Shown one piece after another: positions 1,954-61,479 of a DNA stretch of 64,000 nt (position 1 is its first letter; every line of letters begins with the position of its first letter). A model generated the notes under the pieces. The model was not told the DNA's origin, made no database searches, and saw only the letters and a list, made by a program, of their open reading frames with translations. Origin of the DNA: a virus (taxonomy: Duplodnaviria; Heunggongvirae; Uroviricota; Caudoviricetes). Location of the stretch: positions 12,132 through 76,131 of the IMG/VR virus record IMGVR_UViG_2778261223_000007, one strand, 5' to 3'. The position numbers and the translations under genes were made by a program.

Positions 1954-2328
1954 ATGCTTTATGAAATAGACGCAAGACTTCAAACGAATGAGAGCGGTGT
2001 CATTATTGCAGAAGGAAGTTCCGCAGCATGGATGGCCCGACTTGACGAGTGGCTACGAACCCCTGAAGGGAGTGTTTATGGTTTACCCTCTTGGGGGAAT
2101 CCAATGGAAGAATTTAAGCATGAACCATTCGGCTCTGAAACTTCGCACATAGTTGAAGTGGCTATTGAAGGGAGAATGATGAAAAAACTACGACAAGACT
2201 TGCCAGGTTTGGATGTGCAGGGGATTCGTTGCACATCAATTTCTGAAGATTCTTTATTAATTAGTTTTTATGCGAAAGGTGGGAGCATGGATATTGTTAT
2301 GCAGAAATCAAGTGGGGTGGGCGCGTGA
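1954..2328 (+). CDS. small baseplate/tail morphogenesis protein (PmgA position)
   Basis: 124-aa ORF packed between sit and the bplA-like gene; its stop overlaps the next start (GTGA). Confidence 0.45.
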   Translation: MLYEIDARLQTNESGVIIAEGSSAAWMARLDEWLRTPEGSVYGLPSWGNPMEEFKHEPFGSETSHIVEVAIEGRMMKKLRQDLPGLDVQGIRCTSISEDSLLISFYAKGGSMDIVMQKSSGVGA

Positions 2329-3755
2329 CGATTACAGAATTACTGGACAAATTTAACGCCAAGTTAAATGAAAACACATGGTGGTCACGATTTGTAAATA
2401 GTCAGTTTGTGCAGATGCACGCTATATTCGGATCACAGCTTATTTATATTGCCCGTACATTTGCAAGCCGCGGCCTCACTGAGGGACTTATTTCAACGGC
2501 TACGCGCCGCTCAAGTATTTTAGCGGTTGCTGAAGACCGTAGCTACGTAGGGCGATTTGTTAGTGCTTCATACGGAACAACGTCTATAACCAATAAAACT
2601 GATCGGGATATTACGTTACCAGCCGGGGCTGAATTGCTTGCCAATGACCAAACACCTTTGGCAATTATTAACAGTGTTGTAATTCCTGCTGGAGGAACTG
2701 TTTCTGGCGTAGAAACTAAACAGCATGAAGCTGTTAGCGTTACATTTGATATTGAGAAGGAAACTTTATTTCTGACATTGTTGCTTTCCAGAGAATTAAC
2801 AAAAGAAGTCTCTAGCCTGGATGTTTATGTTATTACAGATGGCGTAGAAGAAAAATGGACATATAACCCATTATTTAGAATGTCCAGAGACAAGAGTAAG
2901 CACTATTCATTGGCATATAAACCTACAGAACAACTTGGAGTCAAGTTTGGTGATGGTTCTATGGGTATGATGCCTCCAGCAGGCTGTCAGGTTCGAATCG
3001 ATGTTATGGCTAGCCTTGGCGACTATACTTTGGCTGAAGGACAAAAGTTAGAACCGGCTGGAAATATCGCTCAATATGTGGAGTCACTAGAGTTTAAAAC
3101 TGATTCGATCATTACCGGTGGTAGTGGTATGGAAACTACAGAAGAAACTCGAAATCGTGCTCAGTATTATGTTGCATACGATGAACAAGTGGTATGGGGC
3201 GGTGATTATCGCCAATTCATTCAGAATGTTGTTCATGGAACTTCATGGTTGAACGTTTGGGGCGAAGCGTTGCAAGAGAAAATAACTGGGTTTGACGTTC
3301 GAAACATCAACAAGATTTTCTTTTGCGGACATAAGCCAGGTGTAAGCCAGGCTCAGCTAAAATCAGAAATACTGAAAGCTCTAGAGAATGTTCCAAATGA
3401 GTTGAACAAGCGGTTTGAGTATGTAGATACAAATGAACAACCATTTACTATAATATTTACAGGTATTGCACGTAAAAATGTTCTGATAGACGACGCTCAA
3501 AATGCTATTAAAGCAGCGTTGGAAGAAAATTTTGGTCGTGATTCGTCATCATTCAGTTTATTACTACAGAGTGATGATGATTCTCAGCAATGTTATGCAC
3601 AGGTAAAAGTTAAAGATATTTGGCGAGTAATAGAGTCGCTGGATATGTTTCTCTCTTATGACATAACAATACAAAATATGAAAGATGCAGTTTACTTTAA
3701 TGACTTCATTTATCTTGACGTGAAATCTTCAACGTTCAGCATTTCTTACCCGTAA
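2325..3755 (+). CDS. bplA: baseplate protein, BplA-like
   Basis: 476-aa ORF with a GTG start overlapping the upstream stop. Size and position match P1 BplA; no catalytic motif checked. Confidence 0.55.
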   Translation: MTITELLDKFNAKLNENTWWSRFVNSQFVQMHAIFGSQLIYIARTFASRGLTEGLISTATRRSSILAVAEDRSYVGRFVSASYGTTSITNKTDRDITLPAGAELLANDQTPLAIINSVVIPAGGTVSGVETKQHEAVSVTFDIEKETLFLTLLLSRELTKEVSSLDVYVITDGVEEKWTYNPLFRMSRDKSKHYSLAYKPTEQLGVKFGDGSMGMMPPAGCQVRIDVMASLGDYTLAEGQKLEPAGNIAQYVESLEFKTDSIITGGSGMETTEETRNRAQYYVAYDEQVVWGGDYRQFIQNVVHGTSWLNVWGEALQEKITGFDVRNINKIFFCGHKPGVSQAQLKSEILKALENVPNELNKRFEYVDTNEQPFTIIFTGIARKNVLIDDAQNAIKAALEENFGRDSSSFSLLLQSDDDSQQCYAQVKVKDIWRVIESLDMFLSYDITIQNMKDAVYFNDFIYLDVKSSTFSISYP

Positions 3756-3765
3756 TGAGGTTAGC

Positions 3766-4611
3766 ATGAAAGATAATTGGCTTAAGGAACGATTAACTAA
3801 AGTAAAACAGGATTCACATCTCTGGAGTGCATTTATAGACGCTTTACAGGATGTCTGGAATGAGGCAGTAGAACCAATATTAACAAGAATAAGTAACAGA
3901 AAATCCTTCTTCACTATGGACAGTGAGGACATGGATGCCCGCATTGCTGAATACGGGCGTTTTTTCGTTATCACTGAAAAAGATAAGGCTCGTAGGCCAA
4001 TGCTGCTGGCACAACGTTTAGATGAAGTGCACTTTAAAGGCACTATCTTGCCAATTGAGCAGACATTCTGGCGTGAATTCGGTTGTATTCCTGTTAGTTG
4101 GGAACCGCTGTATGCACCTGTAAATATAGAAAAACACCCCTATGGTTCATATTTTGCGACCGAAATAGAAATACCTACGGCACAGGCTCAATTCGGTGAG
4201 TTCTTCCTGACATCAAGGGGGCTGGTCGTTGTTGATCAGAACAAGCTATATCGCTCATATGGAGAGCAGGATAAAGAAGCCGCTGTACAGAAATTGTTAT
4301 CTGACTTCGAAACAGTAATAGCCCCTTTATTGCCATTGCATATTGTTTTTGATGGCGTCTCGTTTCGGCTTAGTGCTGTATTCCCTGAAGTGGCAGAAAT
4401 ACTAAATTGCTTGTCTACGGATGTTTCGGTAATTGAAGGTGTTTATGTTACTGAGAGTATGGCTGATATGCTATCCCGTAGTGATACCTCCTGCCAGGTA
4501 GACAATATTTCTCTTAACGCCATACCGAACCGAACGGCAGAAAAGCAATTACATCTTGATGTAACCCCACTCGATGCGTGGCCTTTGGATTACCACCTTC
4601 AACCTGTTTAA
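3766..4611 (+). CDS. baseplate/tail protein (P1 gene 16 position)
   Basis: 281-aa ORF, co-directional, 10 nt after the bplA-like stop. Call is from synteny only. Confidence 0.45.
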   Translation: MKDNWLKERLTKVKQDSHLWSAFIDALQDVWNEAVEPILTRISNRKSFFTMDSEDMDARIAEYGRFFVITEKDKARRPMLLAQRLDEVHFKGTILPIEQTFWREFGCIPVSWEPLYAPVNIEKHPYGSYFATEIEIPTAQAQFGEFFLTSRGLVVVDQNKLYRSYGEQDKEAAVQKLLSDFETVIAPLLPLHIVFDGVSFRLSAVFPEVAEILNCLSTDVSVIEGVYVTESMADMLSRSDTSCQVDNISLNAIPNRTAEKQLHLDVTPLDAWPLDYHLQPV

Positions 4612-5154: not shown

Positions 5155-8154
5155 ATGGGGGCTGATAAAACGAACAACATAATGACACTATCCTCTGGTG
5201 TCTCACAGCCTTTGCTTGCTGATGTTCAATATTTCGAACTCTATAGTAGTTCGGCTCTTAACAGAAAACTTAAAAATATTGTTTTGCCTGGCTTTTACTG
5301 TGGATTTGAACCAGTTCCCGGCACAGGGTTGAGTGTTCGTATAACTTCTGAAAACTCAGAAGGTAAAGGGGCTGCTTCAGTAGATGTAAATAATGTTCAG
5401 ATATCCGTTCAGCAAATAGAAGATGTGACTGTCTCGGTAAAGGCTGGGGCTACCAACATTATTGTGCTGGAAGCCAATTTTGAACATGGTGTAAAAACGA
5501 CACAGGTAGATAGCGCATCTTCTGTCAGTGCTGCAAGAATTTACGCGCGTACGGACAATACTATTGGGCAGAATCAAATTGAATTATGTCGAGTTATCGT
5601 GCCTAACGGCGCAACGGCTGTGACTAAAGAAATGATTGTGCTTAAATACCGGGTTAACCGTGCTGTTGGTGTCGAATTCTCTAATGAAATAAGCAGTACA
5701 GAAGAAAGAAAAGCGGCTACACCTCTGGCTGTCAAAACTCTCCATGATTTGGTTGATACAAAAGCTCCGCTCGATAGTCCGCATCTGTCAGGTACGCCGA
5801 CTTCGCCGACACCTGAACCCGGTACAAACAACACACAGATCGCAAATGCGGCCTTTGTCTATGCTGCTATAAATGCGCTTATCAATGGTGCTCCGGGAAC
5901 GATGGACACGCTGAAAGAAATAGCGGCTGCGATCAATAACGACCCGAATTTCAGCACAACTATCAACAATGCCCTGGCTCTTAAAGCTCCTTTGGCAAGC
6001 CCGGCGTTCACAGGTACGCCGACAGCACCTACGGCCTCACAAGGCACAAATAGCACGCAGATTGCAAATACAGCCTTTGTTAAGGCAGCTATAACGGCAC
6101 TTATCAACGGTGCGCCTGGCACACTGGATACGCTGAAAGAAATAGCGGCTGCGATCAATAACGACCCGAATTTCAGCACAACTATCAACAATGCCCTGGC
6201 TCTCAAAGCGCCTTTGGCAAGCCCTGCATTAACGGGTGTCCCTACTGCGCCGACCGCCGCACAGGGCACAAATAATACGCAGATTGCTACGACCGCTTAT
6301 GTAAGAGCTGCCATATCCGCATTGGTTGGTTCATCACCAGAAGCTCTTGATACCCTGAATGAGCTTGCCGCAGCACTTGGCAATGACCCGAACTTTGCGA
6401 CAACAATGACAAATGCGCTGGCAGGCAAACAGCCTCTGGATGCAACTTTAACCGCGCTCGCTGGCCTTGCGACTGGTGCAAACAAACTGCCTTATTTCAC
6501 CGGTAAGGATACGGTAGCGCAGACTGATTTAACGTCAGTCGGTCGCGATATTCTGGCTAAAACAAGCACACTGGCCGTTATCCAATACCTTGGTTTAAGA
6601 GAACTCGGTACCAGTGGTGAAAAGATCCCCCTGTTGAGTACGGCTAACACATGGAGTGCGCGCCAGACTTTCAATGGCGGGATCACCGGGGCGCTGACAG
6701 GGAACGCCGACACCGCGACGAAATTGAAAACAGCCATAAACATTAATGGCGTCAGGTTCGATGGTTCGGCTGACATTAATATCAATACTCTGGTATCGCG
6801 TGGTCGCGTAACGGCTCTGGGGGCGAATGCACAGGGGACATCCGGGATTCAGCTGTATGAGGCATACAACAATGGCTATCCTTCCCCCTATGGCAATGTG
6901 CTTCACCTTAAAGGTGCCACCGCTGCTGGCGAAGGTGAATTATTCATTGGCTGGAGTGGCTCGAGCGGTGACCATGCGCCCGTACATATCCGTTCGCGGC
7001 GTGATACTGATTCTGCCAACTGGTCTGAATGGGCACAGGTCTATACGTCAAAAGATTCAGTTCCCGGCGTTAATGCCAAAGGGAATCAGGATACCTCTGG
7101 TAATGCGGCTACAGCGACCAAATTGCAGACGGCGTGTACTATCAACGGTGTCTCGTTTGATGGTTCTAAAAACATTGAGCTAACGGCGGAAGATTTAAAT
7201 CTTGAGCAAACCGTAGAATTAGCCGCAGGAGCATTGCAGAAAAACCAGAACGGTGCAGATATTCCGAATAAAGATAAATTCATACAAAACACAGGGGCCT
7301 GTCGTGCATTTAGCGGTCAGACTGATATCGATGGTTCACAAGGTGAATGGTCGACAGTTGCATTTATCTCGTGGCTGGAGAATAACGGAGCTTTCCGACA
7401 TCCATACTGGATGTGTAAAGGGTCATGGTCCTATGCCAGAAACAGGGTTATTACGGATACCGGTTGTGGAAATATCTGCCTTGCCGGAGCCGTGATTGAG
7501 GTTATGGGAACCCGCGGCGCAATGACCATACGCGTTACCACGCCGAGCACGTCCAGCGGTGGCGGAATCACTAACGCTCAATTCACTTATATTAATCATG
7601 GTGATGCTTACGCTCCTGGCTGGCGACGAGACTACAACACGAAAAACCAGCAGCCTGCATTTGCTTTAGGGCAAACAGGACGCAGGGTCGCAAATGATAA
7701 AGCTGTTGGCTGGAACTGGAATAGCGGCGTTTATGATGCAGATATCAGTGGCGCATCGACATTAATCCTCCACTTTAATATGAATGCGGGGAGTTGCCCT
7801 GCTGTACAGTTCCGCGTGAATTACAGAAATGGCGGTATCTTTTATCGTTCAGCGCGTGATGGTTATGGCTTTGAAGCTAACTGGTCAGAGTTTTACACCA
7901 CAACACGCAAACCCTCTGCGGGAGATGTTGGTGCATATACGCAGGCAGAATGTAACTCAAGGTTTATTACAGGTATTCGCCTTGGCGGTCTGTCATCTGT
8001 TAAGACATGGAATGGTCCTGGCTGGTCTGACAGGTCAGGTTATGTCGTTACTGGTTCAGTTAACGGAAACCGTGATGAATTAATTGATACAACTCAGGCA
8101 AGGCCAATTCAGTATTGCATTAATGGAACGTGGTATAACGCGGGGAGTATTTAA
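5155..8154 (+). CDS. S: tail fibre protein S (constant part fused to the currently expressed variable part Sv)
   Basis: ATG 5155 with a GAGGG SD overlapping the R stop (the ORF track uses TTG 5149). N-terminus ADVQYFELYSSSALNRK resembles P1 S. Contains fibre collar repeats, and the ORF crosses the cix site at 6578-6603. Confidence 0.9.
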   Translation: MGADKTNNIMTLSSGVSQPLLADVQYFELYSSSALNRKLKNIVLPGFYCGFEPVPGTGLSVRITSENSEGKGAASVDVNNVQISVQQIEDVTVSVKAGATNIIVLEANFEHGVKTTQVDSASSVSAARIYARTDNTIGQNQIELCRVIVPNGATAVTKEMIVLKYRVNRAVGVEFSNEISSTEERKAATPLAVKTLHDLVDTKAPLDSPHLSGTPTSPTPEPGTNNTQIANAAFVYAAINALINGAPGTMDTLKEIAAAINNDPNFSTTINNALALKAPLASPAFTGTPTAPTASQGTNSTQIANTAFVKAAITALINGAPGTLDTLKEIAAAINNDPNFSTTINNALALKAPLASPALTGVPTAPTAAQGTNNTQIATTAYVRAAISALVGSSPEALDTLNELAAALGNDPNFATTMTNALAGKQPLDATLTALAGLATGANKLPYFTGKDTVAQTDLTSVGRDILAKTSTLAVIQYLGLRELGTSGEKIPLLSTANTWSARQTFNGGITGALTGNADTATKLKTAININGVRFDGSADININTLVSRGRVTALGANAQGTSGIQLYEAYNNGYPSPYGNVLHLKGATAAGEGELFIGWSGSSGDHAPVHIRSRRDTDSANWSEWAQVYTSKDSVPGVNAKGNQDTSGNAATATKLQTACTINGVSFDGSKNIELTAEDLNLEQTVELAAGALQKNQNGADIPNKDKFIQNTGACRAFSGQTDIDGSQGEWSTVAFISWLENNGAFRHPYWMCKGSWSYARNRVITDTGCGNICLAGAVIEVMGTRGAMTIRVTTPSTSSGGGITNAQFTYINHGDAYAPGWRRDYNTKNQQPAFALGQTGRRVANDKAVGWNWNSGVYDADISGASTLILHFNMNAGSCPAVQFRVNYRNGGIFYRSARDGYGFEANWSEFYTTTRKPSAGDVGAYTQAECNSRFITGIRLGGLSSVKTWNGPGWSDRSGYVVTGSVNGNRDELIDTTQARPIQYCINGTWYNAGSI
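5764..6429 (+). repeat. three tandem 222-bp (74-aa) tail-fibre repeats inside S
   Basis: Unit APLxSPxxTGxPTxPT..GTNxTQIAxTAFV..LINGAPGTLDTLKEIAAAINNDPNFSTTINNALALK. Units 1 and 2 are near-identical at DNA level over about 120 bp (5878 versus 6100, offset 222). Confidence 0.9.
6578..6603. other. cix recombination site inside S (TTATCCAATACCTTGGTTTAAGAGAA)
   Basis: 26-bp Hin/Gin/Cin-type crossover site, inverted relative to the copy at 10843-10868. Sequence homology between the two arms begins exactly here. Confidence 0.85.
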
Positions 8155-15277: not shown

Positions 15278-15306
15278 CACAGCTTTCTCTATAGTTGGAG
15301 TGTATT

Positions 15307-16671
15307 TTGAACAAATCAGTTACTTCTGCGCTTTCCGAGGCCGCAGATATTAACAGCGTCATTGCTCTGGTTTCTTCATTAGAGAGGAAAGAAACACGCC
15401 TGGGGCGAAGTAGCTACGTAGTCACCAGCAAAGGTGCAGAGGTAAAGACGGCTTTTAAGGTCGTTGATGCCAGCAGTCTGATCATTTCGAACAACCTTGA
15501 CGGTACGATTAACCCGGCCTTCCCGGAAGAACTCCAACCACGAGATCGTACCCGGCTATCCAGCAAACTCCAGGTTAACCGTATTGCCTCCGATTTACGC
15601 CCGGCACAATTAACGGATTCCGGTATGAGCAGCCACGGAGCGCCGATAGTTGGTCCGGACAACGTTGTTGAATCCGGCAACGGAAGGAGTATGGGTATCT
15701 GGCGTGCCTATGAGCAAGGACAGGCGGATGAGTATCGCCAGTACCTGATCGACCATGCGAAAGAGTTTGGTCTGAATCCTGACGAAATTTCGCAAATGTC
15801 TATGCCCGTACTGGTGCGAGAAAGACTCACAGATGTAGACCGCGCTCAATTTGCCCGCGATTCAAACATTAGCGATCTGCAAGAGATGGCAGCAAGTGAA
15901 AAAGCGTATGCGGATGCGCAATTTCTCACTGAGAGCGTCATGGCGCTATTTAATCCTTCAGATGATGGAAATCTGCTGGCGCGGTCCAATGATGCGTTTA
16001 TTCGTGCGTTTTTGCGCGAAATTGGCGATACAGCGACGGCAGGCTTGCTTACTGCCGATGGGCGTCCCACGAAACAGCTTATCGATCGCATCCAGAATGC
16101 AATTTTTGCCAAAGCGTACAAGGATGAAAGGCTTGTTCGGCTGGTGTCGGAAGAGCCAGATCCGGAAATGCGTAATATCCTGATCGCATTAAATACGGCA
16201 GCCAGCGATTTTGCGCAAATGCAGTCGCTGTCTGGCGATGTTCACCATGACACGGTAACCGGACTGGTAGACGGTATAGAGCAATTGAATGGTCTGGATA
16301 AACAGGCTATTGCAGCGCTACAGGAAGCAATTAACCTTGTTCGTGAAGCAAAAGATAACGGTCAGGCAGTAGAAGAGGTGATCGCACAGCGTGGATTGTT
16401 TGGAGATAGCACTCCGGAAGCAGAAGCGCTTGCTCTGTTTATTGTTGCCAACAACCGAAGCGCTAAGCGAATGGGGGCCGCTTTCAAGAAACTGGCGCAA
16501 AAAATTAACGATGAACTTATTCACCAACAACAAGCGTTAGGCGATATGTTCGGCGGCGGAGATGTCGATCTGCGTAGCATTTTATCTGCCGTTTCTGATG
16601 AAATTGAGACTGAGTTTGGCGAAGGTAAAGGGTTAATTTTTTCTATGTTTGAGCCAACCTCTGTTGGGTAA
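15307..16671 (+). CDS. DdrB-position virion protein with a ParB/Srx-like N-terminal motif
   Basis: TTG 15307 lies 7 nt after GGAG (the ORF track starts at 15295). Motif ELQPRDRTR...VVESGNGRSMGI resembles a ParB-like nuclease fold. Shorter than P1 DdrB as I remember it. Confidence 0.4.
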   Translation: MNKSVTSALSEAADINSVIALVSSLERKETRLGRSSYVVTSKGAEVKTAFKVVDASSLIISNNLDGTINPAFPEELQPRDRTRLSSKLQVNRIASDLRPAQLTDSGMSSHGAPIVGPDNVVESGNGRSMGIWRAYEQGQADEYRQYLIDHAKEFGLNPDEISQMSMPVLVRERLTDVDRAQFARDSNISDLQEMAASEKAYADAQFLTESVMALFNPSDDGNLLARSNDAFIRAFLREIGDTATAGLLTADGRPTKQLIDRIQNAIFAKAYKDERLVRLVSEEPDPEMRNILIALNTAASDFAQMQSLSGDVHHDTVTGLVDGIEQLNGLDKQAIAALQEAINLVREAKDNGQAVEEVIAQRGLFGDSTPEAEALALFIVANNRSAKRMGAAFKKLAQKINDELIHQQQALGDMFGGGDVDLRSILSAVSDEIETEFGEGKGLIFSMFEPTSVG

Positions 16672-16796
16672 CATCAATGTAACTTAATGCTCTTTCTGTG
16701 CGTTCATCACATATCTGAAGATGGGCGCATAATTCATTTTTGTTCCTGTTTAATAATATGTAAACTAGCTGAAAATATAATGAATGAGGATAACCG

Positions 16797-17354
16797 ATGT
16801 CATCATTTACAGATTTGGTTTCAGCTCTTGCATGGCCATTGGTGTTTGTGTGGTTTGTTAATAAGTATGGGGTTGATATTAAGGAGTTAATAGTACGTCT
16901 GAGTAGATTCAAGATTGGAGTAGCTGAAGCTGAGTTTAATGCGGGACTAACCGCAGCAGAAGTATTAGCAACAGATGCATCAGTTGGGAATAGAAATATT
17001 AACAATGGTAATAATAACTCTGAATATATAAATAAAATCGCACAATTAGAGAGAATTGCTGATTTTTCACCTAGAGCTGCTATTATGGAGTCATGGTTGA
17101 TGGTAGAGGAGGCTGCCGGGCGCTCTGGTTTTATACAGGGAGGGTTAAAGCCGAAACGGAATCCAGAACTATTCATTGACTGGTTGATTCAAGAAGGAAA
17201 ACTTGAAGATTCCGCTGCTTTGCTGTTAAAACGGCTTCGCTCGCTAAGAAATGAAGCCGCGCACTTTCTGGATTTTGAAATCACCAGAAATGAAGCTGAA
17301 CGCTATATAAGACTTGCAGCGAAGGTTTCACAACTTATTGTTGATCCAGATTAG
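16797..17354 (+). CDS. membrane-anchored DUF4145-like protein
   Basis: N-terminal hydrophobic helix (LVSALAWPLVFVWFV). C-terminal SPRAAIMESWLMVEE...LLKRLRSLRNEAAHF matches the DUF4145 signature (LR.LRN.AAH). AT-rich by eye. Confidence 0.6.
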   Translation: MSSFTDLVSALAWPLVFVWFVNKYGVDIKELIVRLSRFKIGVAEAEFNAGLTAAEVLATDASVGNRNINNGNNNSEYINKIAQLERIADFSPRAAIMESWLMVEEAAGRSGFIQGGLKPKRNPELFIDWLIQEGKLEDSAALLLKRLRSLRNEAAHFLDFEITRNEAERYIRLAAKVSQLIVDPD

Positions 17355-17398
17355 TTTTACTTACTTAGCTTTGATAATTTATAACATGGAGTATAGTT

Positions 17399-17731
17399 AT
17401 GAGAAATATAATCCTGGTTTGTGCTTTATTAGCTTCTGCATCAGTTTGTGCTGCGCCCTATAAGATAAAAATCCCTTCTGATCCAAAAGCTACTTATACA
17501 GTGCTGGATATTGGTCGTGAAGGTGAATATAAAACTATCATTACAAAAAGGGAAGGCCCATCTGGGACAGCATATTCGAAGAGAATATATAATTGCATGA
17601 CAAATGAAGTGAAGTATCTTGGTTCTGGGGAGACGCTTGAACAGATGAAAAATTCAAAACCTGATCCCAAAATGGGGGGGATTGTAAGTGGTTCCATCGC
17701 TGACTATGTGGGCAGGGAAGCGTGTAAGTAA
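17399..17731 (+). CDS. small secreted protein
   Basis: 110 aa with a Sec signal peptide MRNIILVCALLASASVCA|AP; AT-rich. Confidence 0.6.
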   Translation: MRNIILVCALLASASVCAAPYKIKIPSDPKATYTVLDIGREGEYKTIITKREGPSGTAYSKRIYNCMTNEVKYLGSGETLEQMKNSKPDPKMGGIVSGSIADYVGREACK

Positions 17732-17762
17732 TCATTAACAGCACCAATAAAACTCTCCTATC

Positions 17763-17783
17763 AAATCACATACTGATTATGCT
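17763..17783 (+). promoter_or_regulatory. candidate late promoter AAATCACA-TACTGAT-TATGCT
   Basis: Motif copy 33 nt upstream of the portal start codon. Confidence 0.55.
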
Positions 17784-17815
17784 GCCGCAAAACTGGAAAC
17801 AATTTGCGGTGATTC

Positions 17816-19498
17816 ATGGCAACGAAAGACAAAAACAAAGGCTTTCTGTCAGCATTGAAGAAAGCCTTCAACGGTGGTGATGTTACGCCCGCCGATCCGG
17901 TCGTTTTTACGAGCGGGCATAGTGTCGTTGCTCGTTCCGGCCTGTCTGCTTTACGTCCAGGTATACTGGGGAGCAACAGCGATGGCATGACGAGTGCAGC
18001 AGATTCAATTTCTTTATCCGCTGAACTGCCCGGCGAGCGCCTGCAAAAGTACAACATCCTGGAAACGATGGCTAAAAGCCCGACTATCTCGACGGCTTTA
18101 AACATTCACATTGCACATGCGCTTGCGCCTTCAAAAAAAACCGGACAAGCATTCATCCTTTCGCCAAAGGATGGTTCCGATGCTGAGGCAGTAAGTAGAT
18201 GTGAAGAGTTAACCGCTGATTTGGGGGCGATGATTAATGACGGACTTCCTTCATGGGCCATGATTATGGCTATCTTTGGGGTGTCTTATGTCCGACCTTA
18301 TGCTGAACAGGGCAGGGGGATAACAGGCATTGAGTCCAGTTATTACACTCTGCCACACTTCGTCCAGGAGTTTTATCGTGGTAGCCAGCTGGTAGGTTTC
18401 AGTGGTGATTACATTCTGGATACGCATAGTTTGCGCAGAGTAATAACCGAACCGTGGAATCTGGTTTCCATGAAAAATCCCTATTGGACGCCACAGCATA
18501 AAGTTATTCCGGTTAGCTACGGCACAAAAGGGTACTCACTGTTAAGTGATCAGGCTGATAAGCCGTTAATGGAGACGCAGAATTACGGAACTTCATTCCT
18601 GGAATACAGCTATGAACCTTACCTTAATTTATGTGCTTCGCTCGCCGCGCTGAAATCAACGCGAAATAATGCAGCCAAAATTGACCGCCTGATTGCTCTT
18701 ACGACGAACACACTGGACCCGGTTAATGCGGCGAACTATACGCGTGGCGTCAGCCAGGCATTGAAGCGTCATAGTGACCTGGTGGCGCAAAGGTCGATTA
18801 ATGCCAACGCTATTCCGACTGTGCTTAACCATCTGATACCTGTTATGGGAGACGGGAAGAACGGCATCACCATTGATACGCAATCCATACCCGCAGATAT
18901 CAGTGGTATCGAAGACGTTATGTTTCACCTCCGGCAGCTTGCTGCAAGCCTCGGCATTGACGCAACAATGCTTGGCTGGGCTGATCAGATGAGCGGAGGG
19001 CTTGGAGAAGGCGGCTGGCAGCAAACTGCTATCCAGGCTGCATTGCGTGCGAACTGGATCAGACAGGCCGCCCAGCGAACTATTTATCGGCTTCTGGACA
19101 TTCACCTCGCTTATAAATACGGCAAGGTTTACACCGAAACAAACCGCCCTTATGACGTGCAATTCAACTCAATGAACACTGCTATCCAGGAAGAGGAAAA
19201 CCGAGAACTGGATGCACGCGCCAACTTTGTTGCTGTCATCTCCCAAATTATGGACCAGATCCAGAACAACCCGAAACTGGCTGGTAGCGACGCGTTTATG
19301 CGTTATCTGTTCACTGAGCAGTTGCACATCGACGATGACACTCTCAACACCATGATCAAAGAGTTTAAGGCGAATGAATCAGAGCAAAACAACGAGCATG
19401 GTATGTACGAATCCGCGCCGTTGTCGTCCGGTGACGATCCGGAAAACTGGACGCCAGAACAGTTAATAAACTTTGCAAAATTTGTGATGAGCAATTAA
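17816..19498 (+). CDS. prt: portal protein
   Basis: 560 aa; followed immediately by a protease/scaffold-like gene, the P1 prt-pro arrangement. Confidence 0.65.
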   Translation: MATKDKNKGFLSALKKAFNGGDVTPADPVVFTSGHSVVARSGLSALRPGILGSNSDGMTSAADSISLSAELPGERLQKYNILETMAKSPTISTALNIHIAHALAPSKKTGQAFILSPKDGSDAEAVSRCEELTADLGAMINDGLPSWAMIMAIFGVSYVRPYAEQGRGITGIESSYYTLPHFVQEFYRGSQLVGFSGDYILDTHSLRRVITEPWNLVSMKNPYWTPQHKVIPVSYGTKGYSLLSDQADKPLMETQNYGTSFLEYSYEPYLNLCASLAALKSTRNNAAKIDRLIALTTNTLDPVNAANYTRGVSQALKRHSDLVAQRSINANAIPTVLNHLIPVMGDGKNGITIDTQSIPADISGIEDVMFHLRQLAASLGIDATMLGWADQMSGGLGEGGWQQTAIQAALRANWIRQAAQRTIYRLLDIHLAYKYGKVYTETNRPYDVQFNSMNTAIQEEENRELDARANFVAVISQIMDQIQNNPKLAGSDAFMRYLFTEQLHIDDDTLNTMIKEFKANESEQNNEHGMYESAPLSSGDDPENWTPEQLINFAKFVMSN

Positions 19499-20522: not shown

Positions 20523-20539
20523 GTTAAATTTCTAACATA
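20523..20539 (+). promoter_or_regulatory. repressor-operator-like site GTTAAATTTCTAACATA
   Basis: Exact TTTCTAACA core, one of at least 10 copies in the window. Confidence 0.6.
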
Positions 20540-58495: not shown

Positions 58496-59421
58496 TGAAT
58501 CTGTCCATCTCTCAAAAAGCGACAATGACCAGCATTGAGATCGCGGAACTGGTAGGTAAGCGCCCTGATAACGTTAAACGCACCATTGAACACCTGGCGG
58601 AACGGGGCGTAATATCTTTTCCTCAAATTGAGGAAAAGCCCACCGCAGGCCGCCCGGCGAGCTATTACGTCTTTGAAGGCGAACAAGGCAAGCGTGACAG
58701 TATCATTGTCGTCGCACAGCTTTCTCCCGAATTTACCGCCCGGCTGGTGGACCGCTGGCGCGAACTGGAGAATGCCCGGGTACAGTTAAAATCAAAAGCC
58801 GAAATCCTGGCTGAAATGGCGCAAATGCATCTTGAGCATGAACGCCGGATCAACGCCGTTAATGCCCAGGTAGCCGAAGTATCGGCACAAGTGTCCAAAG
58901 TCGCTGAAACCGTCGAGCAAATCAAGAAAGGCAATATTCCGGAAGGCTACATTGGCTACCGCCAGCTGGCGGCGAAATGTGGCCTGACTGAAGCCAAATG
59001 CCGAAACCTGGTTAACGCTTACCGGATTCCCACCGATACGCATGAGTTTTTAACTCCCGATGGTTTGCTTGCGCAACGCTCCATTGTGGCCCTGGCCCCC
59101 TTCCGGAAAGCCTTTAAGCAGGTGATGTCGGAGGCAGAACCACGCAATAAACGCTGGTATCATCCAAAGATGGGGATGTTTCAGGCAATCCACCATCCTG
59201 TGCCTGAAAGTCCAAAGGCAAACCTGTCGTTGCATACCGCCAGAGAGAGGATTAAAACAGGCTATGCAATCGTATGCCGTCGAGCATCCTGGCCTGAAGG
59301 TGTATGGGTGTGGCCCGAAGGTGGATCACGAAAGCACTGGCGCACTATCCGGGATGGGAAAATCCATGCGATTGATTTAGCTCCAGAGGATGTTGTTGCT
59401 ACGGACTGGATTGTTAGTTAA
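58495..59421 (+). CDS. ant: antirepressor, second copy, with a fused C-terminal DUF2829-like domain
   Basis: 308 aa. Rha signature MTSIEIAELVGKRPDNVKRTIE; C-terminus CRRASWPEGVW...DVVATDWIVS. Confidence 0.75.
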   Translation: MNLSISQKATMTSIEIAELVGKRPDNVKRTIEHLAERGVISFPQIEEKPTAGRPASYYVFEGEQGKRDSIIVVAQLSPEFTARLVDRWRELENARVQLKSKAEILAEMAQMHLEHERRINAVNAQVAEVSAQVSKVAETVEQIKKGNIPEGYIGYRQLAAKCGLTEAKCRNLVNAYRIPTDTHEFLTPDGLLAQRSIVALAPFRKAFKQVMSEAEPRNKRWYHPKMGMFQAIHHPVPESPKANLSLHTARERIKTGYAIVCRRASWPEGVWVWPEGGSRKHWRTIRDGKIHAIDLAPEDVVATDWIVS

Positions 59422-59429
59422 TTACTGTT

Positions 59430-59451
59430 GCCCCGGCCTGTCCGGGGCTTT
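59430..59451 (+). terminator. terminator hairpin
   Basis: GCCCCGG-CCTGT-CCGGGGC followed by TTTA. Sequence-related to the terminator at 23224. Confidence 0.6.
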
Positions 59452-59480
59452 AACTACTAAATAACCGGATTCTCCGCACG

Positions 59481-59765
59481 ATGAAGAAAATAGATTTCAC
59501 TTACTCTGCTGCCACAATCCAGCGACGTTTCAGTCTCATAAGGGAAGTGGAACTATCAAAAAACTGCTATCAAATTCTACTGGATGAAGAGTTTTCACTG
59601 ATGGTTATAGCAGAAAAATTGGCTATGCCGAATGACCGGCACAAGGTCATAGCCAGCCTGGATCTGGTGACAAACAGATACTGGGAATACGAGGAACTAC
59701 TTGAAGTTGGCTTGATACGCGAGATGATAGAACAGGCTGTTCCCCTCCACTTACAGCAACCATAA
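59481..59765 (+). CDS. hypothetical protein (AT-rich island)
   Basis: 94 aa with no motif recognised. Confidence 0.45.
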   Translation: MKKIDFTYSAATIQRRFSLIREVELSKNCYQILLDEEFSLMVIAEKLAMPNDRHKVIASLDLVTNRYWEYEELLEVGLIREMIEQAVPLHLQQP

Positions 59766-59901
59766 TTGAAAGATCTTAACGATAGTCTGCCACGAATAGT
59801 TACTTCCACTGCCTAAAGTTATTTAATTGCATTACAAAGTGTAAATTAGTAACATTAGAATCTCACACAGCACTATAACTATATGTTTTTTATGTAAAAG
59901 G

Positions 59902-60261
59902 ATGATAATCGTGGCTACTAAAATTAAACTTGAAAACCCTCAAACTGGCGAATCAATCACCGGTTTTTATGGTTTTTCCTGGACTACATTCTTGTTTGGT
60001 GCTTTTCCAGCTTTGTTCAGGAAAGACTTTATAACTTTTATTGGGGTATTTGTAGTGATGCTGATACTGGCATTCCTCACAGCCGGAATTGGCCCGTGGA
60101 TTGCCTCATTTATCTGGGCGTTCATGTATAATAAATATTTCACCGTAAATAAGATAAAACAAGGCTTCATTTTTGCTGGTTCTCACACAGAAAATGAGTT
60201 GGCTGCTAGCAAGCTAGGATTGTCATTAAATCAAAACAACTGCAAAACTATTACCGAGTAA
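59902..60261 (+). CDS. two-TM membrane protein, DUF2628-like (alternative GTG start 59911)
   Basis: GFYGFSWTTFLFGAFPALFRKDF...FLTAGIGPWIASFIWAFMY. Confidence 0.5.
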   Translation: MIIVATKIKLENPQTGESITGFYGFSWTTFLFGAFPALFRKDFITFIGVFVVMLILAFLTAGIGPWIASFIWAFMYNKYFTVNKIKQGFIFAGSHTENELAASKLGLSLNQNNCKTITE

Positions 60262-60300
60262 AGCCAAAAAGCAGGCTTAATAGTAAGCCTGCTATGTCAA

Positions 60301-61134
60301 TCACGAATCTCTCTGACAATTCAGAAACATAAACGCCCGCTTGTCTGTTAAATCCGTAACATAATACTCTCTCATGCCTGTAGGTTTTATTCTACGAGCA
60401 TATACAAACTTATGAACTGGTTGTTTTTCCCCATAACTTACATCAGTCCTAAATTCATCAACCACGCTACCATCTTTTTCAGTTTCCTTTCTCACTAGCT
60501 GATTTTCTAATACAGGCTTTGATTCGTCCATGCCACTAAAAGCATCCTGACCTGTGCTGTTGCCTCGGTTTCCGCGTGGCAAATCCCATGAAAAATAAGT
60601 GCCATAGTCAGTAATCACACGATCCCATGTTCCGGAATCCCCCATATAGTTAGAACGCTCCCCCTTGTAAGTTACAGCCACCTTACAGGCATACGTTTCA
60701 CCATTATTTTTTTTATCATGTCCAGCCATGCTTGCAGGAGTTGCAGGGGAATTATGAATAGATGCGCTTACATCATCTTGCGTTAATTTCTCAACTGGAG
60801 CAAATTCATATATGGGTGTGCCGAGGCTATTTAAATATAACTTATATCTAACCCTAAGCGCACTTCCATCTGAGAATTCATACGTTCCCAGGCATTGGAG
60901 CTTATTGTTTTCTCTTATCTCATTGATCTGATTATAAGCATCAATTACAGAGATTGCTTCCTGCTCGTCCTTCAGCAGTTCATTATAATCATCGATTAAC
61001 ATCTGCCTAGTTTTAGGGGAATTGCAGTCAATTTTGCTAAAATCATAAGCAAAGGTGAGTGTGGGAACAAAAAGAGCAACAACAGTAGCTAGTATTGTTG
61101 AGGAAAATCTTTTTCCATTTTTTATAAAAAACAT
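60301..61134 (-). CDS. secreted protein of unknown function
   Basis: 277 aa from ATG 61134, 9 nt after GGAG (the ORF track starts at 61212). Signal peptide MFFIKNGKRFSSTILATVVALFVPTLTFA|YD. Confidence 0.55.
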   Translation of the reverse strand: MFFIKNGKRFSSTILATVVALFVPTLTFAYDFSKIDCNSPKTRQMLIDDYNELLKDEQEAISVIDAYNQINEIRENNKLQCLGTYEFSDGSALRVRYKLYLNSLGTPIYEFAPVEKLTQDDVSASIHNSPATPASMAGHDKKNNGETYACKVAVTYKGERSNYMGDSGTWDRVITDYGTYFSWDLPRGNRGNSTGQDAFSGMDESKPVLENQLVRKETEKDGSVVDEFRTDVSYGEKQPVHKFVYARRIKPTGMREYYVTDLTDKRAFMFLNCQRDS

Positions 61135-61322
61135 TTCATTAACTCCATACCTTACCATCTTAGCCGCGAGCGCGGTCCCTAAAACCATTAACTTCACTGC
61201 ACCGTCCTTCATGCAATCAAAATGACTTTTATGTTATAAAAATAATCAGCCAAATCAACATGATTTAGGCCAAATTTCTGTCAAAAAATAAAATCCACAA
61301 AAAGTGGTTGACACTATTTTGG

Positions 61323-61343
61323 AAATCACAAACTGCACATAAT
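61323..61343 (+). promoter_or_regulatory. candidate late promoter AAATCACA-AACTGCA-CATAAT
   Basis: Motif copy, unusually 137 nt upstream of the next ATG, with a terminator in between. Confidence 0.5.
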
Positions 61344-61427
61344 CCATCGCGCTAACGGCTCCCGTTGAAGGTTCTTTTGACGATTAACTTTCAGCCGAAG
61401 CGCGGTAGGGAGTCATAACGCCAAAGC

Positions 61428-61452
61428 AGGCCGCCATGTGCGGCCTTTTTTT
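61428..61452 (+). terminator. intrinsic terminator inside the leader
   Basis: AGGCCGC-CATGT-GCGGCCT followed by T7; ends 28 nt before ATG 61480. Confidence 0.8.
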
Positions 61453-61479
61453 GTATCCGTCATCCGTGGAGGAAGGACA

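Follow-up and report, generated by a model that had tools for sequence, protein, structure and literature searches.

A horizontally acquired block of a D6-type phage-plasmid holds two probably independent cargo genes, one for a putative membrane-tethered HEPN protein and one for a predicted exported protein

The 64,000-nucleotide stretch of DNA that was analysed (the window) is a plasmid prophage of the Escherichia phage D6 type. Between its ddrB-like gene on the left and its portal gene on the right lies an AT-rich block that was acquired horizontally and holds two genes, orf24 and orf23. We conclude that these are very probably two functionally independent accessory genes (morons) and not one system. 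The complete reading, which includes our functional guesses of a defence RNase for orf24 and an envelope-level role for orf23, is given a rough probability of 0.55. The features of the region are as follows.

15295–16671, + strand: ddrB-like gene of the left flank (Pfam ddrB-ParB, E 3.4e-42; D6 annotation)
16653–17762, no strand: acquired AT-rich block of 1110 bp, 38.6% GC, replacing about 51 bp of the D6-like plasmids without the block
16653–16671, + strand: new ddrB 3' end (EPTSVG and stop) derived from the insert, as seen in the alignment; the ddrB of the empty site ends in ...FENSTVLNNCSMEN and stop
16797–17354, + strand: orf24, 185 aa, predicted RNase whose HEPN domain (DUF4145-type) is tethered by a single membrane helix; Shine-Dalgarno GAGGA at 16786–16790
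16803–16859, + strand: orf24 residues 3–21, hydrophobic N-terminal helix with WP signature (W13, P14); Kyte-Doolittle 19-residue mean 1.63
17016–17342, + strand: orf24 residues 74–182, helical HEPN domain
17247–17264, + strand: HEPN Rx4H motif R151-N-E-A-A-H156 (AGA AAT GAA GCC GCG CAC), read from the sequence
17399–17731, + strand: orf23, 110 aa, small protein of an unnamed family, export predicted; Shine-Dalgarno GGAG at 17388–17391
17399–17455, + strand: orf23 residues 1–19, predicted Sec signal peptide with n-h-c pattern (MRN, IILVCALLASASV, CA-A, the hyphen marking the cleavage site)
17456–17728, + strand: orf23 mature domain, residues 20–110, beta-sheet and two helices, invariant C66 and C109
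17816–19498, + strand: portal gene (prt) of the right flank (D6 annotation; weak Portal_T4 match)

The first-pass annotation had described a two-gene insert between the dar operon and the portal gene and had judged its AT-richness by eye. Both open reading frames are present as it had given them, and the computed GC content is 38.4% for the span it had marked and 38.6% for the block, compared with 49.1% in the left flank, 48.7% in the right flank and a window mean of 47.3% (sd 3.3); only 0.9% of the 1110-bp windows have a GC content as low as this. The junctions were mapped to 16652/16653 and 17762/17763 using blastn and MAFFT against D6-like plasmids without the block (empty sites L002 and L003, IS-occupied site L004). 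This alignment established a genuine insertion or replacement, in which about 51 bp were exchanged. The left junction falls within the final codons of ddrB, which gains a new 6-residue C-terminus. Target-site duplications and terminal repeats were looked for at the block ends and none were found.

The block is carried by 14 of the 119 D6-like plasmids (~12%); the others have the short ~51-bp sequence or an IS200/IS605 element in the same slot. Among 5426 complete E. coli genomes, it was found in nine and was plasmid-borne every time. Two further plasmids, pSa1423-90k and pSa1423-160k, gave full-length but "diverged" matches and were left out, because their ORFs are fragmented in a way typical of error-rich assemblies. 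As ~88% of the D6-like plasmids lack both genes, neither is a core virion gene, and the mapped junctions, the low GC content and the sporadic presence bear out the earlier idea of horizontally acquired cargo. By the Hendrix/Juhala definition (summarised in PMC3594210), a moron is DNA that close relatives lack, deviates in GC content, and has its own promoter and terminator for expression from the repressed prophage; the block shows the first two of these properties. The dar-type operon to its left, lydA-lydB-hdf-darA-ddrA-ddrB, is closed by ddrB. The remark in the first-pass annotation that P1 has variable cargo at this position agrees with the published P1 gene order lyz-ssb-isaA-IS1-isaB-hxr-ddrB (PMC10695390).

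The hydrophobic segment at the N-terminus of ORF24 is followed by the basic residues K23, K29, R34, R37 and K39, and AF2 predicted a helix over residues 2–60. The segment is hydrophobic in 53/53 aligned members of the orf24 family, in which W13 and P14 are at least 90% conserved. Because it is short and its hydrophobicity is borderline, the membrane insertion of ORF24 is a prediction; the predicted topology is N-out and C-in, with about five residues at most in the periplasm. The motif LRSLRNEAAHF, from which a DUF4145 domain had been proposed, is present at residues 148–158. Among the 53 family members (25–59% identity), R151 never varies, and the conservation of N152 and H156 is at least 90%. 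The Pfam DUF4145 profile scored 19.9 bits on the D6 protein (E 8e-4), under the gathering score of 23.1, and matched 49 of the 53 relatives (best E 3.3e-7), HEPN_Swt1 matched 34 of them, and RiboL-PSP HEPN was also matched at the family level. ORF24 has the compact alpha-helical core fold of the HEPN superfamily, DUF4145 branch (Pfam clan CL0291). Thus, the combination of a membrane helix with DUF4145 read by the first-pass annotation is retained, with the helix as a predicted one.

Searches for a named system gave little. PADLOC v2.0.0, which had been suggested as a check on the pair, contained no model matching either D6 protein or any of five orf24 relatives (E<=1), and PHROGs lists both families as "unknown function". 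A profile search of solved structures using ORF24 returned HepS alone, at E 0.24. The match of orf24 to NCBIfam HsdR (type I restriction) was discarded as meaningless, as it scored 12 bits.

The architecture itself was described in 2013, when a WP-signature transmembrane helix joined to DUF4145, with the HEPN domain predicted to be cytoplasmic, was reported by Anantharaman, Makarova, Burroughs, Koonin and Aravind (Biol Direct 8:15, PMC3710099). Compared by this described architecture, ORF24 is like the members of that family (for example gi 153825856 of Vibrio cholerae) in having a W-P helix followed by an Rx4H HEPN domain, and it has the single N-terminal transmembrane helix of the family as a prediction. 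The family is known from computation, and no experimental study of it was found in the literature searched. A phage-plasmid is a new context for it: D6 is the sole encoder of the orf24 family among 50,697 phage records.

The relatives of orf24 occur in a variety of mobile contexts. In Cronobacter, the gene lies in an island with a CAP12-PCTIR TIR protein, AbiTii, ApeA-HEPN and resolvases; in Klebsiella and Raoultella, it is found in integrase-AlpA-primase satellites; in Serratia and Yersinia, at prophage ends; and in Salmonella, in an island adjoining an integrase. The Vibrio and Photobacterium relatives (30–36% identity) are single-gene attC cassettes within arrays. It should be noted that a validated integron defence cassette of V. 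cholerae, Esos, is HEPN-only. No recurrent neighbour of the orf24 relatives was found in 80 diverse loci. A 175-aa ORF located 3' of the closest relatives was considered as a partner and rejected, as it is present in 6/99 loci and absent from D6; it encodes an unrelated cytoplasmic protein and had no match in PADLOC. These contexts (the TIR/AbiTii/ApeA island, satellites, prophage ends and integron cassettes) make a defence guess for orf24 reasonable, and by analogy we somewhat favour a HEPN-type conflict or defence RNase as its product.

This analogy is drawn from one-gene HEPN/DUF4145 defence precedents, namely RAZR, BxaP, Ishtar, HepS and Tha. RAZR (PD-T7-4) is an abortive-infection RNase composed of a zinc finger and a DUF4145 HEPN domain, whose cytoplasmic triggers are portal or Gp77 rings (Nature 2026, PMC13017515). 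Its N-terminal Cys4 zinc finger has no counterpart in ORF24, which contains no cysteine and has a predicted transmembrane helix instead; none of the PADLOC models, which we only assume to include PD-T7-4, matches ORF24 at E<=1. HepS of the Gifsy-1 prophage and Tha of S. aureus prophages are single HEPN abortive-infection proteins, that is, stand-alone prophage cargo shielding the lysogen from other phages, and orf24 is likewise stand-alone HEPN cargo. HepS is also the best solved-structure match of the ORF24 profile, although the match is non-significant and covers the R-N-x-x-A-H helix only. HepS is a tetramer binding tail-tip proteins, and the abstracts on HepS and Tha mention no transmembrane anchor, whereas a transmembrane helix is predicted for ORF24. 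A further likeness, as a mechanistic analogy only, is to the membrane-bound nuclease SNIPE, which cleaves the DNA of a phage as it is being injected (Nature 2026, PMC13190303): both SNIPE and, by prediction, ORF24 are inner-membrane nucleases that would tell self from non-self by the location of the injection site. SNIPE acts on DNA, whereas the HEPN-type domain of ORF24 belongs to a family known for RNase activity.

On these analogies, the following mode of action may be proposed. The short WP-signature helix would anchor the cytoplasmic DUF4145-type HEPN domain, with its Rx4H motif intact (R151, H156), at the inner membrane. By analogy with HepS, Tha, RAZR, BxaP and Ishtar, ORF24 would most likely be a latent RNase that becomes activated when a competing phage or another invading element infects the cell, and would then cut tRNA or mRNA. 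The cleavage would halt translation and abort the infection, so that the population of D6 carriers would be protected. As ORF24 is predicted to be membrane-tethered, its trigger or restraint may act at the inner membrane, for example during genome injection or late membrane damage. HEPN domains also act in toxin-antitoxin and RNA-processing roles.

The second gene belongs to a large family. We found 108 homologs of orf23, and an exhaustive profile search extended the family to at least 689 clusters at 50% identity, for which there is no Pfam or NCBIfam family. The AF2 model of ORF23 has a pLDDT of 91.4 overall, which is low at residues 1–20 and 97–98 beyond. The N-terminus varies in sequence, but all 40 aligned members keep it hydrophobic, and the cysteines C66 and C109 never vary. 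Together with the n-h-c pattern ending in VCA-A, this family alignment and the two cysteines support the Sec export that had been proposed for this protein, as a prediction. The lipobox cysteine of the Cor and Llp type is absent from the D6 protein, which reads A-S-V-C with valine at -1, and a lipobox-like motif is present in no more than 7/137 short family members. Therefore, D6 ORF23 is probably soluble in the periplasm and not surface-exposed. Longer relatives carry added transmembrane anchors, DUF4124, SH3_3 or PPIase modules, which is consistent with an extracytoplasmic location of the family.

The structural matches of ORF23 are at the level of fold only. They include Protein E of Haemophilus influenzae (3zh5) and chain B of the entry for the Pseudomonas TdeM muramidase (9m3l), with 8–10% identity, no Pfam or profile link and no canonical lipobox in ORF23; sequence profiles of the Protein E family and DUF2511 gave no match to orf23, and no account of TdeM was found in the literature searched. 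Two names were rejected. A "flagellin hook IN motif" match from the structure profile search was spurious, being inflated by repeats that each have E 15, and Pfam did not confirm the name "DUF2511" under which one orf23 relative is annotated.

Relatives of orf23 are encoded on 117 IMG/VR viral contigs. Among the 80 loci kept, the gene lies between DUF6246 and the tape-measure gene in 44, after the baseplate spike gene in 16, and 84–88 bp downstream of a CI-type repressor, in the same orientation, in eight. The orf23 relatives are typical prophage cargo, and the position before the tape-measure gene is a classic moron slot. HK97 gene 15, which was the first moron to be named, lies in the chaperone/tape-measure slot and acts in the exclusion of superinfecting phages (PMC3594210). 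The tail assembly chaperone/tape-measure slot is thus shared by HK97 gene 15 and the orf23 relatives of those 44 loci, and gp15 and the orf23 relatives are both small, envelope-targeted and of deviating composition. However, gp15 is an inner-membrane, YebO-like protein and ORF23 is predicted to be a soluble periplasmic beta-sheet protein, and no sequence similarity was found between them. Other envelope-level superinfection-exclusion proteins are Cor, Llp and SieA.

ORF23 would be a periplasmic protein of ~91 residues, exported by the Sec route and probably containing a disulfide bond, and the carrier's cell envelope is its most likely site of action. Our leading guess for its function is superinfection exclusion, and this is a tentative one, drawn from position and localisation alone; the pre-tape-measure slot and the location downstream of CI repressors make a defence or exclusion role a reasonable guess. 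Taken separately, such a role is plausible for each of the two genes. Alternatively, ORF23 may be a lysogenic-conversion factor that alters the surface or envelope and thereby affects the interaction with the animal host or the tolerance of stress, for which lambda Bor, Lom and adhesin-like lipoproteins are analogues. We consider this somewhat unlikely: ORF23 and Protein E are no more than 10% identical, without a Pfam match, the D6 protein lacks a canonical lipobox and is probably soluble in the periplasm, family members are also found in environmental Pseudomonas, Xanthomonas, Thiobacillus and Rhizobium, and the family is repeatedly located next to repressors and to tail or injection genes.

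For both genes, a role in the life of D6 itself also has to be weighed, in which orf24, with or without orf23, would serve the lytic cycle as a late host-shutoff RNase or plasmid maintenance as a toxin-like addiction module. The block is flanked by two operons that P1 expresses late and is co-oriented with them, and since orf24 and orf23 have the orientation of these late-type operons, their production might be confined to a late stage of the D6 lytic cycle. Signals of their own were scarce. A sigma-70 consensus scan of the block gave five promoter-like sites versus 3.9 expected, which is no excess, and a terminator scan gave none, which makes late read-through transcription plausible. No operator-like motif was found within 2.7 kb, the consensus of the P1 C1 operator was matched nowhere in the window, an Lpa-type late-promoter palindrome was sought de novo twice and not found, and Rfam had no match across 16300–18000. 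A conserved hairpin (17785–17809) lies directly before the portal gene; it occurs once in the window and therefore is not a recurrent promoter element. Addiction is also not foreign to such elements, as HEPN proteins are the toxins in HEPN-MNT toxin-antitoxin pairs (PMC3710099) and addiction modules such as phd/doc are known in P1-type plasmids (PMC10695390). However, no minimal nucleotidyltransferase ORF lies beside D6 orf24, and no MNT or other antitoxin-like neighbour was found beside its relatives in 80 other loci. Furthermore, the great majority of D6-like plasmids manage without the block, and a lytic-cycle role would be senseless for relatives in integron cassettes and chromosomal defence islands. 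Thus, we regard a lytic or maintenance function as unlikely.

It is less likely still that the block is neutral hitch-hiking DNA whose ORFs are intact merely through recent acquisition. The copies of the block are at least 98.9% identical to one another, so that conservation within D6 is uninformative, and the scan for promoters and terminators found no expression signals. Nevertheless, both families are constrained elsewhere, their catalytic and structural residues being invariant at 25–60% identity, both genes have good Shine-Dalgarno sequences, and the block has been maintained across two host genera and several countries.

The reading of the block as two independent genes was finally set against the proposal of the first-pass annotation that a membrane sensor/effector and a periplasmic partner form one cassette for superinfection exclusion or abortive infection. 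They lie side by side in the same orientation, 44 bp apart, and are similarly low in GC, and the D6-like plasmids gain or lose them together, with both intact in 12 good assemblies and one alone in none. This joint presence reflects one recent acquisition, as the near-identity of the copies indicates. Meanwhile, the genomic neighbourhoods of the relatives show that the genes move independently. An orf23 relative was found near orf24 relatives (within ~8 kb) in 0/99 loci, and an orf24 relative near orf23 relatives in 1/89 loci, that one being itself a D6-like contig. Plasmid homologs of orf24 and orf23 also occur singly, the orf24 relatives function in contexts without a conserved neighbour, including the single-gene integron cassettes, and the closest of them are followed by the unrelated cytoplasmic 175-aa ORF instead of orf23. 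Moreover, with so few ORF24 residues predicted to face the periplasm, a periplasmic partner would have almost nothing to touch. Since the families are never adjacent outside D6-like elements, the two-gene cassette is not supported, and we consider it very improbable. Adjacency in a single phage is no evidence for a two-gene system, and the co-occurrence test is a cheap check.

Phage-plasmids of the P1 and D6 types are common in the E. coli and Salmonella of people and livestock, and the role of their variable cargo is largely obscure. The near-identical plasmids with the block, without it, or with an IS element in the slot constitute a natural experiment. A broader proposal, which we hold to be speculative and somewhat unlikely, is that orf24 represents a class of one-gene immune proteins in which a HEPN RNase, held at the inner membrane by a WP-signature helix, would be activated by membrane events such as genome injection or membrane damage and would discriminate by location instead of sequence recognition, and orf23 a large family of periplasmic superinfection-exclusion proteins encoded beside the tail and injection genes of many prophages. 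If orf24 protects its carriers, a first function would be known for the family of membrane-tethered DUF4145 HEPN proteins, which was predicted in 2013, occurs in many bacterial phyla and in Vibrio integron cassettes, and is unmatched by any model of the PADLOC release of 2023. Should orf23 block superinfection, a role would be gained for a family of at least 689 clusters in prophage tail operons.

Over 15800-18600, the window shares 99.9% identity with Escherichia phage D6 (NC_050154), a plasmid prophage related to P1. On the plus strand of the window, the gene order of the D6 record is lydA-lydB-hdf-darA-ddrA-ddrB-orf24-orf23-prt (portal)-pro-repL, and the following features lie between ddrB and prt:

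16653-17762, AT-rich block of 1110 bp
16797-17354, plus strand, orf24, 185 aa, predicted transmembrane helix and DUF4145/HEPN domain
17399-17731, plus strand, orf23, 110 aa, predicted exported protein

Both ORFs were found exactly where the first-pass annotation had placed them, each preceded by a good Shine-Dalgarno sequence, and they are labelled in RefSeq as "DUF4145 domain-containing protein" (orf24) and "hypothetical" (orf23). Their products (16797-17351 and 17399-17728) were 99.5% and 99.1% identical to the NC_050154 proteins, about one residue apart each; copies on Salmonella plasmids (e.g., pYU39_89, CP011430) and on E. coli CP042620 matched both at 100%. This indicates that the window comes from a D6-like plasmid rather than the D6 type record.

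The AT-richness of the segment, earlier judged by eye, was upheld by computation: the GC content of the block is 38.6% vs 49.1% and 48.7% in the flanks, and a value this low occurs in just 0.9% of windows of the same length (window mean 47.3%, sd 3.3). The junctions were mapped by alignment with two D6-like plasmids lacking the block and one whose site is occupied by an IS element. Homology stops at 16652, 19 nt ahead of the ddrB stop codon, so that the insert gives ddrB a new six-residue C-terminus, and it restarts at 17763; 1110 bp thus stand in place of ~51 bp. Neither a target-site duplication nor terminal repeats were found at the insert ends. The segment is a genuine insert with exact boundaries, and its description as cargo agrees with the empty sites, the low GC content and its presence in 14 of the 119 PLSDB plasmids that match the flanks. 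About 100 of these plasmids matched both flanks with a length ~1.06 kb less, and a few had an IS200/IS605 tnpA-tnpB element in place of the block. The block was also present in 9 of 5426 complete E. coli genomes, every time on a plasmid and with at least 99.4% identity. Both ORFs were intact in all 12 good plasmid assemblies (protein identity at least 98.9%), and these near-identical copies point to a single recent acquisition. The ddrB-prt slot is evidently permissive and the region is an insertion hotspot; P1 likewise has hxr, isaB, IS1, isaA, and ssb distal to ddrB (PMC10695390).

In the D6-like plasmid CP057742, an IS200/IS605 tnpB-tnpA element lies in the ddrB-prt slot (locus L004, 2433-4122), and in another relative, CP020051, a TnpB gene lies directly upstream of ddrB (locus L003, 1-901). 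The window itself has two more low-GC patches, ~2551-4560 and ~59351-61460 (at most 40% GC in 1110-bp windows), which may be further acquired cargo; a Pfam search of their ORFs (2325-3755, 3766-4611, 59481-59765, 59902-60261, and 60301-61212 on the minus strand) gave no family.

The D6 ORF24 protein alone matched Pfam only below threshold (DUF4145, 19.9 bits vs the cut-off of 23.1; HEPN_RiboL-PSP, E 0.011). A search of 5.8 billion proteins yielded 103 relatives with identities from 59% down to ~25%, and among 53 aligned members DUF4145 was matched by 49, HEPN_Swt1 by 34, and HEPN_RiboL-PSP by 19. Residues S91, P92, R93, A94, A95, E98, W100, E104, R151, A154, and Y170 are invariant in this alignment, W13, P14, N152, and H156 are kept in at least 90% of its members, and R151-N-E-A-A-H156 corresponds to the Rx4H motif of HEPN RNases. 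The family-level matches together with the motif conservation settle the DUF4145/HEPN assignment despite the sub-threshold D6 copy, so the original domain call was correct. In the AlphaFold model (pLDDT 83.9), residues 2-60 form a long helix and residues 74-182 a compact helical domain, with a linker modelled at low confidence between them. Residues 3-21 have a Kyte-Doolittle mean of 1.63, at the customary transmembrane threshold, and are followed by five positive charges, which by the positive-inside rule would make the HEPN domain cytoplasmic, with about five residues of the protein outside. A family with a WP-signature transmembrane helix and a DUF4145 HEPN domain was described in 2013 (PMC3710099), and a full-text literature search for membrane-associated HEPN proteins found nothing beyond that paper. 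Orf24 adds a phage-plasmid-borne member to this family, which is known from computation and present across many phyla; among 50,697 phage records, D6 alone encodes it.

The relatives of orf24 occur as stand-alone genes, in DNA that is mobile or linked to conflict.

Genomic settings of orf24 relatives
Salmonella island: adjoins an integrase fragment
Serratia and Yersinia prophage ends: adjoin HNH and tail-fibre-assembly genes, with a putative AbiC near
Klebsiella and Raoultella integrase-AlpA-primase satellites: immediately after the primase
Cronobacter sakazakii island (L190-L192, 3999-11258): among CAP12/PCTIR TIR, AbiTii, and ApeA-NTD1/HEPN_Apea genes and resolvases
Vibrio and Photobacterium: single-gene cassettes in arrays of attC (VCR-like) repeats (L050 5162-5983; L048 6387-7065; L089 7821-9341; L074 5000-12000)
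Serratia, Yersinia, S. enterica arizonae, and Pantoea: followed by a conserved 175-aa ORF (L011 6721-7248, L012 2100-2627, L193 7703-8230, L194 1356-1883; also L026 and L027)

The Cronobacter island is a compact defence island. In L050, the gene (5298-5819) exactly occupies the gap between attC-like repeats 5162-5295 and 5850-5983; Esos, a validated defence cassette of the V. cholerae integron, is described as HEPN-only (bioRxiv 10.1101/2024.07.02.601686). Clustering of neighbouring ORFs at 80 diverse loci revealed no recurrent partner. The 175-aa ORF, unrelated and cytoplasmic, follows the gene in the closest sub-clade only (6/99 loci), has no Pfam or PADLOC match, and is not present in D6 or at more distant orf24 loci.

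Several one-gene HEPN or DUF4145 proteins of mobile elements are proven conflict systems. RAZR (zinc finger and DUF4145) is activated by rings of phage portal or Gp77 and cleaves RNA (PMC13017515), BxaP is another such system (PMC10799925), and Ishtar targets plasmids. HepS of Gifsy-1 is an anticodon nuclease acting on tRNA, with tail-tip proteins as its trigger (PMC13043305), and Tha is a system of this kind in S. aureus prophages. By analogy, we think that ORF24 is probably a latent RNase that would abort infection by competitors of D6. Its membrane tether suggests that it would be activated or restrained at the inner membrane; for SNIPE, membrane localisation at the injection site alone can confer self/non-self discrimination (PMC13190303).

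Orf23 matched no family in Pfam or NCBIfam and no annotated family in PHROGs; it is a member of a large unnamed family, with 108 close relatives and 689 clusters at 50% identity in an exhaustive profile search. The N-terminal segment varies in sequence and is hydrophobic in every aligned member, and the conserved domain after it has invariant P26, D28, T49, R51, G56, R62, C66, Y73, and C109. This is the pattern of a predicted signal peptide with a disulfide-bonded exported domain, in line with the earlier call of an exported protein. A lipobox occurs in a few members, the D6 copy being without one. In longer relatives, the domain is C-terminal and is preceded by transmembrane anchors, DUF4124, SH3_3, or a PPIase domain; each of these is consistent with a location outside the cytoplasm. 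The structural model is confident (pLDDT 91.4), with a beta-sheet and two short helices.

The gene is typical prophage cargo, with relatives on at least 117 IMG/VR contigs. At 44 of the 80 loci kept, it lies between an upstream DUF6246 gene and a downstream tape-measure gene, ~48 bp from the latter; the same slot upstream of the tape-measure gene holds gene 15 of HK97, the original "moron", whose product is an envelope protein and keeps out superinfecting phages (PMC3594210). It directly follows the baseplate spike gene at 16 loci, and at eight it lies 84-88 bp downstream of a CI-type repressor in the same orientation, the repressor variants being 52-100% identical. The last layout resembles cI-rexAB of lambda, which argues that at least these copies would be made in lysogens.

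A scan of the D6 block revealed no enrichment of promoter-like sites, no terminator, and no copy of a recurrent operator-like motif known from elsewhere in the window, and an attempt to derive a P1 late-promoter consensus gave none. Expression of orf24 and orf23 by late read-through is a live alternative, since the block has the orientation of the operons on either side, and those are late operons in P1.

A 15-bp motif, ATGTTAGAAAACTAA, has 14 copies in the window (at most 3 mismatches; 2.3 expected), at 20524, 21727, 32672, 33921, 42792, 42878, 44202, 53424, 56812, and 57466 among others. They are mostly intergenic, including upstream of repL and icd/ant, and the motif is a candidate operator of the D6 repressor (C1-type); the P1 operator consensus had no match in the window. 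The inverted repeat CCGCAAA-N11-TTTGCGG at 17785-17809 occurs once in the window, and every D6-like flank retains it. The right arm of the repeat runs into the probable ribosome-binding site of the portal gene (ATG at 17816), and the hairpin, for which the RNA fold gives weak support (-14.6 kcal/mol, z -1.9), could modulate portal translation.

The orf23 product most likely would act at the carrier envelope; superinfection exclusion is our leading guess, the alternative being a conversion factor in host interaction. The first-pass annotation had proposed that both genes form one cassette, a membrane sensor/effector with a periplasmic partner. Such a cooperating pair is contradicted by the loci, with an orf23 relative within ~8 kb of an orf24 relative at 0/99 and an orf24 relative near an orf23 relative at 1/89 (L106, itself D6-like); moreover, homologs on plasmids outside the D6-like elements are likewise found one without the other, and the handful of predicted periplasmic ORF24 residues would leave a partner little to contact. 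One recent acquisition explains why, among D6-like plasmids, the genes are present or absent together. A defence-type role is plausible for each gene on its own.

The likely functions of orf24 and orf23 are of familiar kinds, neither protein matched a PADLOC model, and both genes are already annotated in the published genome. With its natural plus, minus, and IS variants, D6 is an easy test system for the membrane-tethered HEPN family.
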